A stretch of 16,596 nt of DNA from UHGV virus genome UHGV-1601287, one strand, 5' to 3'. Each line of letters begins with the position of its first letter. The first letter of the stretch is position 1. Below the pieces are notes generated by a model. The model was not told the DNA's origin, ran no database searches, and saw only the letters and a program-made list of their open reading frames with translations. The DNA comes from a virus. Positions 4,905-16,591 of this stretch are shown here, piece by piece. A program made the position numbers and the translations under genes.

Positions 4905-5510
4905 GTGATTATTTCTAAGTTTGTTACAATAAAACCAAGAAATCATTCAAAAATGTGGTCGACAATTCTGGGATATAAAGTATCATATCATGATACAGTA
5001 TCTGTTCCAATAGAATTAATGCCAAAGAATAGTAATAAAATAGTTGACGCTAAATGTGATTTGTGTGGTATTAAATTTAGTAGAAGCATTCAGCTTTTAA
5101 ATAGAACACCCACGCATGCATGTAGAAAATGTAGCATTAAACAAGTTGCTATTAAAAATTCGGAAGTTCAATCTGGAATAAGTAGACCATGGCAAAGAGG
5201 TGATAAACATCCTCGATGGACTGGTAAAAGAAAAGAGTTTGCATTATATGCTAGTAGAGTTCATTCTATAACTAAGTCAGCTAAAATAAGAAAAATTTGG
5301 TCAAAATGGCCAAATGCTGATAAAATAGGAGTGTGTGGTACAAAAGGTGCTTACCAACTTGATCATAAGGTATCTATCAAATATGGATTTGATAATTTAA
5401 TTCCGCCGGAAATTATAGCAAGCGTAAAAAATTTAGAAATAATCACTTGGGAATCTAACCGAGAAAAGTCAAAAAGAAATAGCGTAGATCTTTGGGATTT
5501 ACTAGAATGA
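4905..5510 (+). CDS. HNH-family endonuclease (putative free-standing homing endonuclease) with an N-terminal Cys4 zinc-finger-like motif
   Basis: ORF in the 18-19 interval ending TGA 5508-5510. C-terminal HNH-like motif QLDHKVSIKYGFDN…NLEIITWESNREKSKRN. Upstream CxxC…CxxC (CDLCG…CRKC). Start is ambiguous: the track's TTG at 4866 lies inside a hairpin and is unlikely; GTG at 4905 has GAGG (4895-4898) at good spacing; ATG at 4953 has a weak ribosome-binding site. AT-rich with AGA/ATA codons, unlike the neighbouring structural genes. Confidence 0.6.
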   Translation: MIISKFVTIKPRNHSKMWSTILGYKVSYHDTVSVPIELMPKNSNKIVDAKCDLCGIKFSRSIQLLNRTPTHACRKCSIKQVAIKNSEVQSGISRPWQRGDKHPRWTGKRKEFALYASRVHSITKSAKIRKIWSKWPNADKIGVCGTKGAYQLDHKVSIKYGFDNLIPPEIIASVKNLEIITWESNREKSKRNSVDLWDLLE

Positions 5511-9102: not shown

Positions 9103-9912
9103 ATGCTTAAAGAACAACTGATTGCCGAAGCGCAGAAAATTGATGCTTCCGTTGCTCTTGATAGTATTTTCGAATCAGTTAATATTTCTCCGGAAGCAAA
9201 AGAAACTTTCGGCACTGTATTCGAAGCTACCGTCAAGCAGCACGCCGTTAAATTAGCTGAATCTCATATCGCTAAAATTGCTGAAAAAGCAGAAGAAGAA
9301 GTAGAAAAAAATAAAGAAGAAGCAGAAGAAAAAGCTGAGAAGAAAATCGCTGAGCAAGCTTCTAAATTCCTTGACCATCTTGCAAAAGAATGGCTCACTG
9401 AAAATAAATTAGCAGTAGATAAAGGTATCAAAGCCGAACTGTTTGAATCCATGCTTGGTGGATTGAAAGAGCTCTTCGTTGAACACAACGTTGTTGTTCC
9501 AGAAGAATCAGTTGATGTTGTAGCTGAAATGGAAGAAGAGCTGCAAGAACATAAAGAAGAATCAGCTCGTCTGTTCGAAGAACTCAATAAGCGTGACGCA
9601 TATATCAATTATGTGCAGCGTGAAGTGGCATTGAGCGAAAGTACTAAAGATCTGACTGAGTCTCAAAAAGAAAAAGTCTCTGCTCTGGTCGAAGGTATGG
9701 ATTATTCAGATGCATTCTCAAGTAAATTGAGTGCAATCGTAGAAATGGTGAAGAAATCTAATAAAGATGAAAGCACTATTACTGAGAGTATAAATACTCC
9801 TGATACTGAAGCAGCCGGACTGAATTTCGTCACTGAAGCTGTAGAAGATAAAGCTGCACAGGGTGCAGAAGATATTGTAAGTGTATATGCGAAAGTCGCA
9901 TCTCGTTTCTAA
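9103..9912 (+). CDS. 22: Major prohead scaffolding core protein gp22
   Basis: 269 aa, as in T4. Highly charged, E/K-rich, coiled-coil-like sequence. Late promoter TATAAATA at 9068-9075. Confidence 0.93.
   Translation: MLKEQLIAEAQKIDASVALDSIFESVNISPEAKETFGTVFEATVKQHAVKLAESHIAKIAEKAEEEVEKNKEEAEEKAEKKIAEQASKFLDHLAKEWLTENKLAVDKGIKAELFESMLGGLKELFVEHNVVVPEESVDVVAEMEEELQEHKEESARLFEELNKRDAYINYVQREVALSESTKDLTESQKEKVSALVEGMDYSDAFSSKLSAIVEMVKKSNKDESTITESINTPDTEAAGLNFVTEAVEDKAAQGAEDIVSVYAKVASRF
9789..9796 (+). promoter_or_regulatory. T4 late promoter (TATAAATA) for gene 23, located inside the 3' end of gene 22
   Basis: Exact TATAAATA ~135 nt upstream of the gene 23 ATG. No TATAAATA occurs in the short 22-23 intergenic spacer. 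Confidence 0.6.
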
Positions 9913-14454: not shown

Positions 14455-14472
14455 AAGGGGCCGAAGCCCCTT
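14455..14472 (-). terminator. Terminator hairpin after hoc (minus strand)
   Basis: Minus strand reads AAGGGGC-UUCG-GCCCCUU followed by U-rich UCUUCAUUUUG, 10 nt downstream of the hoc stop. Nearly identical to the hairpin after gene 18. Confidence 0.65.
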
Positions 14473-14482
14473 ATGATTATGA

Positions 14483-15901
14483 TTATGGATAGGTATAGAT
14501 GATACCAGTTTCTAAAGCAGTTTTATGAATGATGTATCCATTACGCGATTCTTGGACATCAACTTCTGGATAGTCTTTCATCATCTTCTGAAGAGTGTAA
14601 CGATGCAGGTAGTATTTACTATCTGGATCTTCAGTTTTCCAATCTTTACCTTCTTCAGTCATTTTTTGGATTTCATCCATAACCCACCAACCGCACCAGA
14701 TGTAAGCTGAAGTACGATGTGGAAGAGGATGGACATAAGGTAATTCACCTTCTGGTTCCGGAGCAACTTTATCAGTTACCTGAACTTGACCTTCTGCTGT
14801 AATAGTTTTGCTATCATAGTCATCTGCAGTAACGACGGCAGTCACTTCAATAGTTTGACTTCCAACAGATGAAGTATCAACGGTATATACATTAGTTGAT
14901 CCTTCTACTGGAGAAGAATCTTTCTTCCATGAATAAGTAATTTGTGCCGGTTCGGGTGCACCAGTAACATTAGCTGTAAATGTAGCCGAAGCATCTTGTT
15001 GAACGTTAATAGAAGGAGGAGTCAATGTAACCTGTGGATTCATTGTCTTCTTATTAACCGTTAATGATACTTCATTAGAAGTAACTGTTTTTGCGTCATA
15101 ATCCGTTGCTGTTACTTGGGCTACGCATTTAATTATTTTTACTCCAACTGCAGTAGGAGTATAGCTAAATGTAGCGGAAGTTGCTTCACTAATTTGTGAA
15201 TCATCTACATACCACTGATACGTAGCAGATGCTCCATCAGGTTGAGAAACTAAAGCGGCTGTAAATTGAACAGCTGTTCCGATTACTCCGGCAGCAGGAT
15301 TAGCAGGAGTTACAGCTAGGGTAGTCGTTTGTGTTTTCTTGTTAACAGTCAAAGATACTTCATTCGAAGTAACTTCCTTTTCATTGTAATTTTCTGCAGT
15401 TACTTGGGCTACACACTTAATTTTTTTAACTCCGCTTGTGGCAGGAGTGTAATTGAATGTAGCGCTAGTTGCTTCGTCCACAGGAGAACCGTCAACGTAC
15501 CATTGGTATGTGGCGTTTGCGCCAGATGGCTGCGAAGCTAAAGCGGCTGTAAATTCAATAGCTGTTCCAATTACTCCAGCGTCAGGGCTATTAGGAGTTA
15601 CAGCTAAGGTGGTCGTTTGTGTCTTATTTTGAACTGTGATAGTTGTAGTAGCTTCTGCTGTTTCAGCTTCAGCTTCTGGAACTGTATTTGTTGCAACTAC
15701 TTTAATAGTCTTTTGACCGGCAGGTCCCTTTAATACGTAATTAAAAGTTGCTTCAGCTCCATCTTGTGGAACATTATCTACGCTCCAAGCATAGGTAATA
15801 GGTCCATCTCCAGTTTGACCACTGGGCGTAGCAGTAAACTGCTGAGTCTGATCTATAACTCCAGTAGGTGTTTTAGGAGTTATATCAACTGTAAAAGTCA
15901 T
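14483..15901 (-). CDS. hoc: Highly immunogenic outer capsid protein Hoc, expanded form with four Ig-like domains plus the C-terminal capsid-binding domain
   Basis: N-terminus MTFTVDITPKTPTGVID and C-terminus …YIIHKTALETGIIYTYP are recognisable as Hoc. It is 472 aa against 376 aa in T4. The extra 96 aa is a second copy of the KTQTTTLAVTP…SLTVNK domain (residues 93-188 and 189-284, ~77% identical). Confidence 0.92.
   Translation of the reverse strand: MTFTVDITPKTPTGVIDQTQQFTATPSGQTGDGPITYAWSVDNVPQDGAEATFNYVLKGPAGQKTIKVVATNTVPEAEAETAEATTTITVQNKTQTTTLAVTPNSPDAGVIGTAIEFTAALASQPSGANATYQWYVDGSPVDEATSATFNYTPATSGVKKIKCVAQVTAENYNEKEVTSNEVSLTVNKKTQTTTLAVTPANPAAGVIGTAVQFTAALVSQPDGASATYQWYVDDSQISEATSATFSYTPTAVGVKIIKCVAQVTATDYDAKTVTSNEVSLTVNKKTMNPQVTLTPPSINVQQDASATFTANVTGAPEPAQITYSWKKDSSPVEGSTNVYTVDTSSVGSQTIEVTAVVTADDYDSKTITAEGQVQVTDKVAPEPEGELPYVHPLPHRTSAYIWCGWWVMDEIQKMTEEGKDWKTEDPDSKYYLHRYTLQKMMKDYPEVDVQESRNGYIIHKTALETGIIYTYP
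15050..15625 (-). repeat. In-frame tandem duplication (2 x 288 bp) inside hoc encoding two Ig-like domains
   Basis: Unit 1 at 15338-15625 (Hoc residues 93-188) and unit 2 at 15050-15337 (residues 189-284). Both begin KTQTTTLAVTP and end SNEVSLTVNK. About 77% amino-acid identity, and the DNA is visibly alignable. Confidence 0.85.
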
Positions 15902-15910
15902 AAGTTATCC

Positions 15911-16591
15911 TTATTTTAATGTTACGAAAGAAGAATTGCGTGTTTCACGAATTAAAACTGATCCATCGCGATTAATGTAATAAATTAAGCTAAATAAAGT
16001 TTGGTGTGCTGACGCATGTTCAAAACTAGTTGGGTGAGATTTCCAATCCGGAGTTTCAGCAATCCATTGATAAATCCACCAAGGAACAGTACAGAATCCT
16101 GGATTTTTTCCAATCAGCTGAAGATTCGGACTAAAGTTTTCTGGAAGAGTAAATACAGACGGCTTTTCAGATTCAATAATCTCAGCTACAGCCTGTTCAA
16201 ATTTTTCTTCAACAAAAGGCGTATCTTCAATCAAAACATCGGTATTTTCAGGAATTTTATCCGTTTCTACTACTTCAATTTTAATGTCAGATTTAACTGG
16301 AGAATCAATCAGAAGTGCTGCTTCTGGATTGACTTCTTCATCGTCATATTTTAATCCCTCTGCGGCATCAGCAGCATCAATTAAGTCTTTAATAGATAAC
16401 CCATCAGTCTCTGGCATAGGTTCACTAGCGAGCTTCTGGAGGGCTTCTTCAATATCAACAACGATATTATCAAAAGATTTATTCTTTTTGACCTTTATAC
16501 CAAACTGTTCAGCATATTCAGCTAATTTAGCTTTAGCTTCTTTGTTATCATCAAGAGCCTTCAGCTCTGCAATATAATCTTTATCTATCAT
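15911..16591 (-). CDS. inh: Inhibitor of prohead protease (Inh)
   Basis: 226 aa, as in T4. Directly upstream of hoc on the same strand. N-terminus MIDKDYIAELKALDDNKEAKAKLAEYAEQFGIK. Confidence 0.88.
   Translation of the reverse strand: MIDKDYIAELKALDDNKEAKAKLAEYAEQFGIKVKKNKSFDNIVVDIEEALQKLASEPMPETDGLSIKDLIDAADAAEGLKYDDEEVNPEAALLIDSPVKSDIKIEVVETDKIPENTDVLIEDTPFVEEKFEQAVAEIIESEKPSVFTLPENFSPNLQLIGKNPGFCTVPWWIYQWIAETPDWKSHPTSFEHASAHQTLFSLIYYINRDGSVLIRETRNSSFVTLK

Follow-up and report, generated by a model that had tools for sequence, protein, structure and literature searches.

Hoc sits on the T4 capsid as one molecule per gp23 hexamer centre and is dispensable for growth. Across 650 homologues, a conserved capsid-binding domain is combined with 1 to 10 Ig-like domains, and the protein is highly variable even among close T4 relatives (PMC10385173). 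The residues that contact gp23 lie in the elements PYVHPLPHR, GWW and ESRNG (PMC10385173). A natural two-Ig variant lacks domain 3, and MUC2 binding has been mapped to S183-L184-T185 in domain 2 of the PhiPNJ-9 Hoc (PMC11853027). Adhesion studies compared the 376-aa form with the shorter domain-3-less variant, not the 472- or 568-aa forms (PMC11150434, PMC11853027, PMC13390416). Variable Ig-domain number in Hoc is already known from this published work. No explicit description of a 472-aa, four-Ig Tequatrovirus Hoc was found in the literature, including the supplements of PMC10385173; public records hold abundant 472-aa sequences annotated as Hoc.

The DNA analyzed here (the window) is the whole 16,596-nt stretch of UHGV virus genome UHGV-1601287. 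From end to end it shares 97.4% identity with Escherichia phage VEc74, and it is the head and tail structural-gene block of a Tequatrovirus (T4-like phage). Terminase genes, tail sheath, portal, prohead core, gp23 and gp24 are followed on the minus strand by rnlB, 24.2, 24.3, hoc and inh. The open reading frame list places hoc at 14483-15901 on the minus strand, encoding 472 aa plus a stop codon (TAA at 14483-14485). The gene is flanked in the head-gene region by inh and 24.3, as in the annotations of VEc74 and T4T; the neighbouring DUF2774 gene corresponds to 24.3, and RnlB is encoded downstream. Its product has a calculated pI of 4.52, matches PHROG 1149 ('Hoc-like head decoration') in a profile search (E 1e-140) and aligns to T4 Hoc (5vf3_Z) at E 2e-218. 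Locus, PHROG 1149 match and near-T4 C-terminal domain identify the gene as hoc. With a gap of 9 nt between the inh stop codon and hoc, the two genes are probably co-transcribed. The features of the locus are as follows.

15908-15912, minus strand: Shine-Dalgarno-like AAGGA, read from the sequence, overlapping the inh stop codon and 6 nt upstream of the hoc ATG.
15626-15901, minus strand: Ig-like domain 1, residues 1-92; 81/92 to T4 domain 1; predicted all-beta by AlphaFold2 (pLDDT 85-93).
15338-15625, minus strand: module A, residues 93-188, the first domain-2-type copy, of 'PEA' type; 73/96 to T4 domain 2.
15050-15337, minus strand: module B, residues 189-284, the second copy, nearer to T4 domain 2 (82/96).
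14774-15049, minus strand: Ig-like domain 3, residues 285-376, the counterpart of domain 3 in T4; Pfam I-set and Ig_3 at 289-373; AlphaFold2 pLDDT 87-94.
14486-14773, minus strand: linker and C-terminal capsid-binding domain, residues 377-472; near-identical to T4 281-376; low AlphaFold2 confidence.
14455-14472, minus strand: candidate terminator-like hairpin GGGGCTTCGGCCCC with a T run, a consensus match only; GC-rich; 11 nt past the hoc stop codon.

A direct-repeat search returned a 288-nt repeat at 15044-15331 and 15332-15619 (spacing 288, 75% identity). A preliminary description of this DNA had placed a tandem in-frame duplication at 15050-15625, which is the same repeat offset by 6 nt because the two codons (K-T) after each copy are also common to both. 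It had put the copies at about 77% identity, and residues 93-188 and 189-284 indeed share 74 of 96 amino acids (77.1%) and 216 of 288 nucleotides, ungapped and in frame. By codon position, 80, 80 and 56 of the 96 first, second and third positions are identical. Comparison of hoc with itself at all in-frame offsets gave a best 288-nt window of 75% at offset 288, starting from residue 93. The next-best offset reached 47%, and 200 codon shuffles of the gene gave a mean maximum of 41.3% (sd 1.1, largest 45.1%). Tandem Repeats Finder, run over the whole window, missed the repeat, presumably because 75% identity falls under its score threshold. The unit of 288 nt (96 codons) is adjacent to its copy, in register and bounded as a structural domain, as for an in-frame tandem domain duplication. 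Both copies are kept by selection: dN/dS between A and B is 0.16, with values of 0.08-0.24 for paralogous pairs in four other alleles. Opposite-strand reading frames within the repeat, for example 15329-15541 (plus strand, 70 aa), are unsupported and antisense to a conserved gene, and were set aside.

T4 Hoc (376 aa; 5vf3, 8t1x; P18056) shares with the window protein the inh-hoc-24.3 locus, domain 1 (81/92), domain 3 with the capsid-binding domain (174/188) and the gp23-contact motifs. It differs in having three Ig-like domains rather than four, and chain 5vf3_Z, at 376 aa, is not the same 472-aa form; hoc in the T4T record is 1131 nt. The difference of exactly 96 aa noted in the preliminary description was borne out by alignment of residues 1-112 to T4 1-112 and of 189-472 to T4 93-376. 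Module A is the added one, placed after domain 1 and before the T4-like domain 2. Synonymous divergence (dS) from T4 was 0 for 24.3, 0.05 for inh and 0.16 for both 24.2 and the capsid-binding domain; module B against T4 domain 2 gave 0.31. Over the Ig-coding part of hoc it was 0.3-0.6, with 1.3 for module A, compared with only 0-0.16 for the adjoining inh, 24.3 and 24.2. The Ig-coding part of hoc is a sharply bounded island of old allelic diversity.

AlphaFold2, using a 40-sequence alignment, predicted four all-beta, beta-sandwich Ig-like domains over residues 1-376 (block pLDDT 85-96), with low confidence for the capsid-binding domain at the C-terminus. Strand patterns of modules A and B were almost superimposable in the model. 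In keeping with the extra Ig-like domain first proposed, the additional 96 aa were predicted to form a second domain-2 module with an independent Ig-like fold (pLDDT 85-96). Pfam returned PKD, I-set and Ig_3 domains above cut-offs. Foldseek searches of the PDB with the whole model gave four-Ig fragments as best matches, for example Sidekick and Dscam Ig1-4, at low TM-scores because inter-domain angles differ; RB49 Hoc was absent from the top 50 matches. The Foldseek result supports a predicted string of four Ig-like domains, nothing more specific. Pfam, AlphaFold2 and Foldseek agree on the N-terminal Ig-like string expected of a Hoc. At the other end, the capsid-binding domain keeps PYVHPLPHR, CGWW and ESRNG and has a dN of 0.017 relative to T4. 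From this near-identity and the kept gp23-contact elements, attachment of the window Hoc at the gp23 hexamer centre can safely be inferred.

Megablast of hoc against 50,697 phage records matched 657, and among the best 40 of these, 36 aligned over the full 1419 nt in one piece. Frequency was taken from an evenly spaced sample of 60 rows down the ranking of the 657 records. This sample held 51 full-length matches, with 20 spanning 1419-1425 bp and 31 spanning 1117-1132 bp; the short class includes T4T, T2, T6 and RB7. As estimated from these 60 rows, the long form makes up about a third to 40% of sequenced T4-like phages. Protein cluster representatives fell into classes of 376 aa (n=80), 472 aa (n=29) and 568 aa (n=7), plus singletons of 570, 567, 468 and 378 aa. 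A module HMM found 1, 2 and 3 full copies in the 376-, 472- and 568-aa classes, respectively. The three-module, 568-aa Hoc was found by tblastn in more than 20 isolate genomes, including UGKSEcP1, YUEEL01 and slur03. Among the nearest backbone relatives of the window (96.8-97.4% identity), some carry a long hoc and some a short one. The domain is 'extra' relative to T4, as the preliminary description held, but the rarity that this implied is not seen: the 472-aa form is common across Tequatrovirus, and 568-aa forms occur as well. At a third to 40% of T4-like phages, it is therefore an ordinary old length variant and no discovery. The four-Ig Hoc is a common, widely shared, old length allele of T4-like phages. 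The numbers in the preliminary description all proved right, and so, in substance, did its interpretation.

Among the closest known proteins are the 472-aa Tequatrovirus Hocs of Pu-Krd-SF4 (PQ759884), VEc74 (MT932213) and teqskov (NC_054934), whose architecture and length equal those of the window; wV7 (NC_019505) has the same architecture at 474 aa. In nucleotide sequence, the hoc of Pu-Krd-SF4 is 95.2% identical to that of the window. The match is 98-99% for module B, domain 3 and the capsid-binding domain, whereas module A matches at 84%, with a patch replaced at gene nt 310-489. The window therefore holds a different mosaic of the same building blocks. The 568-aa Hocs (UGKSEcP1 OV877085, YUEEL01, slur03, and P0001 from GCA_050537045.1) have the module family and flanking domains of the window protein but carry an additional module; one in-register exchange separates the two forms. 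RB49 Hoc (3SHS), the two-Ig Hoc of PhiPNJ-9 and the ten-Ig Hoc of Serratia phage Muldoon are distant sequences. In the window's case, by contrast, very closely related genomes are polymorphic for the copy number of one and the same module.

Several other records carry irregular or unexpected hoc genes. Yersinia phage PST (NC_027404; locus L004, 301-1720) has a two-module gene of 1420 nt with a 1-nt frameshift. This hoc is one base too long, and the annotated CDS is therefore reduced to the 3' part; the frameshift is either real or a sequencing error. In NHEP10 and FriedrichMiescher, hoc is annotated in two parts. The PST frameshift and the split annotations fit a dispensable Hoc. The hoc match in Shigella phage KNP5 (KX452698; locus L007, 501-2572), a record marked UNVERIFIED and of unusual length (193.6 kb), is split into three pieces over 2072 bp, which probably reflects faulty assembly rather than a Hoc with six domains. 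LR597660.1 (Escherichia phage T4_ev151, 107091-108794), whose name marks it as a T4 derivative, carries a 568-aa, three-module hoc at 93% to the UGKSEcP1 Hoc, unlike T4.

Modules A and B are separated by a dS of 1.04 (dN/dS 0.16). The nearest relatives of module A are the position-1 modules of other two- and three-module Hocs (up to 87/96), and those of module B are the position-2 and position-3 modules of other phages (up to 91/96). Module B matches module 2 of Pu-Krd-SF4 at 99.3% of nucleotides and module 3 of P0001 at 96.9%. In a motif-class survey of 168 modules, the 'PEA' type occupied position 1 in 39 of the 40 multi-module cases, and the 'QGE' type, that of T4, occupied position 2 in 28 of 29. 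Modules and their nearest neighbours mostly hold the same position. Single-module representatives occur in both types, 52/81 being PEA-type and 26/81, T4 included, QGE-type. The copies within 31 two-module proteins share 54-82 of 96 residues, never above 82, and no recent duplication was visible in any cluster representative. Average-linkage clustering of the modules was uninformative because they are mosaics; motif classes and informative-site strings worked better.

An A-B dS of about 1.0, set against 0-0.16 for flanking genes, indicates that the two module lineages are old. The lineages predate the divergence of the sampled genomes and are far older than that of the surrounding genes. The preliminary description had read the divergence of the copies as the mark of an old duplication. 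Long-standing divergence of the copies stands (dS 1.04), but a simple duplication followed by divergence within this phage does not, because the modules are positional orthologues across phages and module A looks recombinant. Across phages, 21 of 96 module positions are strongly variable. Between A and B, 14 of 22 differences lie outside the predicted strands, which make up 55% of the module, suggesting a mild enrichment in loops.

Module A is itself mosaic. Against the three modules of P0001 (71 informative sites), it agrees with module 1 as far as nt 212 and from there to its end with module 2 (20/20 sites, from nt 218 on), with zero mismatches to module 2 over the last 75 nt. The switch falls at module nt 213-218, within a short tract conserved between the copies.

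15399-15412, minus strand: conserved 14-nt tract GTAGCCCAAGTAAC in module A, coding VAQVT, an exact A/B identity run that holds the parental switch.
15111-15124, minus strand: the module B copy of the 14-nt tract GTAGCCCAAGTAAC, the same exact A/B identity run.

Of 68 differences from Pu-Krd-SF4, the closest relative, 45 are concentrated in one module-A patch (gene nt 310-489, window 15413-15592) that ends at the switch point, and the modules of Pu-Krd-SF4 are modules 2 and 3 of P0001. T4 domain 2 (locus L002, T4T 1777-2064), compared with the three-module allele, is module-2-like in its 5' two-thirds and module-1-like in its 3' third. It switches at the same conserved tract as module A and is its reciprocal mosaic. 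These patterns point to module A as a recombinant of two module types. The mosaic is known from one metagenome-derived sequence, with an identical copy in a second ENA assembly that possibly derives from the same reads, and a small residual chance remains of a strain-mixing assembly chimera within module A; the two-module architecture is independent of it.

Several other accounts of the repeat were weighed. A duplication confined to this phage, or to a very small clade, and unusual among T-even phages is highly improbable. T4 itself has only one module, and no phage-collection record is more than 95.2% identical to the window hoc. Against this, the 472-aa, two-module form is present in many independent isolates (VEc74, wV7, HP3, teqskov, phiD1), and PST too has a two-module gene, albeit frameshifted. 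Each copy is also nearer to same-position modules elsewhere (87-91/96) than to its partner (74/96), and A-B dS is about 1. The shared architecture and positional orthology refute a private origin. Very little probability likewise attaches to an assembly artefact, in which a repeat was expanded or strain variants were concatenated. The window corresponds to an ENA metagenome scaffold (ERZ28657847, ZELL14-1_SAMEA2467067 scaffold_2675, 16,607 bp), base-for-base over the 3.1 kb compared, and mixed T4-like strains can yield chimeric contigs. However, at only 75% identity the copies are not repeats of a kind that collapse or expand in assembly. The reading frame is unbroken, and purifying selection acts on both copies. 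An identical hoc region is present in a second ENA assembly (ERZ27334065 k115_1015). The matching architecture of many independent complete isolate genomes also speaks against an artefact, as the preliminary description had held, and on these grounds the artefact account was rejected. Hypermutation of the Ig-like domain by a diversity-generating retroelement (DGR) was given almost no credence as the source of the A/B differences. DGRs can target Ig-like and C-type-lectin domains in phages (PMC10743442), and 14 of the 22 differences lie outside strands that occupy 55% of the module. The substitution spectrum is not that of a DGR variable region, however, and led to rejection of this account: at 30 of 72 nucleotide differences neither copy has an adenine, transitions are in the majority (45 vs 27), and synonymous third positions are the most diverged. 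The variants, moreover, are discrete haplotype blocks common to several phages. No reverse transcriptase was identified among window open reading frames of at least 100 aa by annotation of the closest record.

A further account concerns the order of events. The modules may have diverged as single-module hoc alleles in different phages and been joined later by unequal crossover in co-infection, in which case the A-B divergence does not date the duplication. We consider this possible, though not probable. Single-module Hocs exist in both types (PEA 52/81, QGE 26/81), both A and B are closer to certain single-module relatives (84/96) than to each other, and modules clearly recombine between phages. 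A later join would nevertheless need a crossover from the end of one module to the start of another, where homology amounts to few nucleotides. The nearly invariant order of A-type then B-type fits a single origin with losses equally well, and the near-identical copies expected after a recent join of similar alleles are seen in no two-module protein.

We favour the reading, at a probability of roughly 85%, that the four-Ig Hoc carries a tandem in-frame second module and is one of three old alleles (376, 472 and 568 aa) reshuffled by recombination. The 96-aa domain-2 module, present twice in tandem and in frame, supplies the fourth Ig domain. Copy number and content would both change as modules recombine, homologously and in register, at short tracts of conserved sequence, and module A would be a product of such inter-module exchange. 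Architecture, sharing of the allele, age and mosaicism are shown by the data, whereas recombination, for reshuffling and for copy-number change alike, is inferred from the mosaic patterns. Those patterns are symmetric: a three-module allele that lost a module would explain them, and so would two-module alleles that gained one by crossing over unequally. By analogy with T4, one Hoc per gp23 hexamer centre would be anchored through the C-terminal domain, and the extra module would be expected to extend the reach by one Ig domain (~4-5 nm) and to supply a second domain-2 surface. A longer fibre and altered binding are plausible, and adhesion may be affected.

We also considered that module copy number, together with sub-block reassortment at the 14-nt tract, is a selected and frequently switching polymorphism, similar to an antigenic or adhesive cassette. 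This proposal is speculative and rather unlikely. It is suggested by the divergence of the Ig region (dS 0.3-0.6 vs 0-0.16 in the flanks), by long and short alleles on near-identical backbones, and by the S-L-T motif in each module. The motif occurs in the window protein at residues 183-185 and 279-281. If the proposal were true, the cassette would tune Hoc fibre length, the number of mucin- or glycan-binding surfaces, or evasion of anti-Hoc antibodies in gut T4-like phages.

As a discovery, the finding carries little weight. It does serve as a reminder that, where hoc is concerned, T4 does not stand for its genus: in roughly a third or more of the sequenced relatives Hoc is longer, with a predicted longer fibre, and in some it is longer still. 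This is relevant to Hoc phage display, to vaccine scaffolds and to mucus adherence comparisons among 'T4-like' therapeutic phages. The reciprocal mosaics at the 14-nt tract offer a small, tractable case of domain shuffling by what appears to be homologous recombination in lytic phages.

Other parts of the window yielded minor observations. The late-promoter motif TATAAATA occurs eight times in the whole window (1.9 expected), always on the plus strand and mostly directly upstream of structural genes; none was found within the window on the minus strand, which carries hoc and inh. Between gp18 (tail sheath) and the next tail gene, an open reading frame at 4905-5510 (plus strand, 201 aa) matches PHROG 5104 and has no Pfam match. 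This stretch is covered in about 70 of 503 matching phage records, whereas most, many close relatives included, match only its last ~108 nt, a pattern that suggests a variable accessory insertion. At 9283-9344 (plus strand), an imperfect GAA-rich tandem repeat with periods of 3 and 24 codes for a Glu/Lys-rich stretch and sits in the scaffold prohead core gene (gp22 equivalent, 9103-9912).
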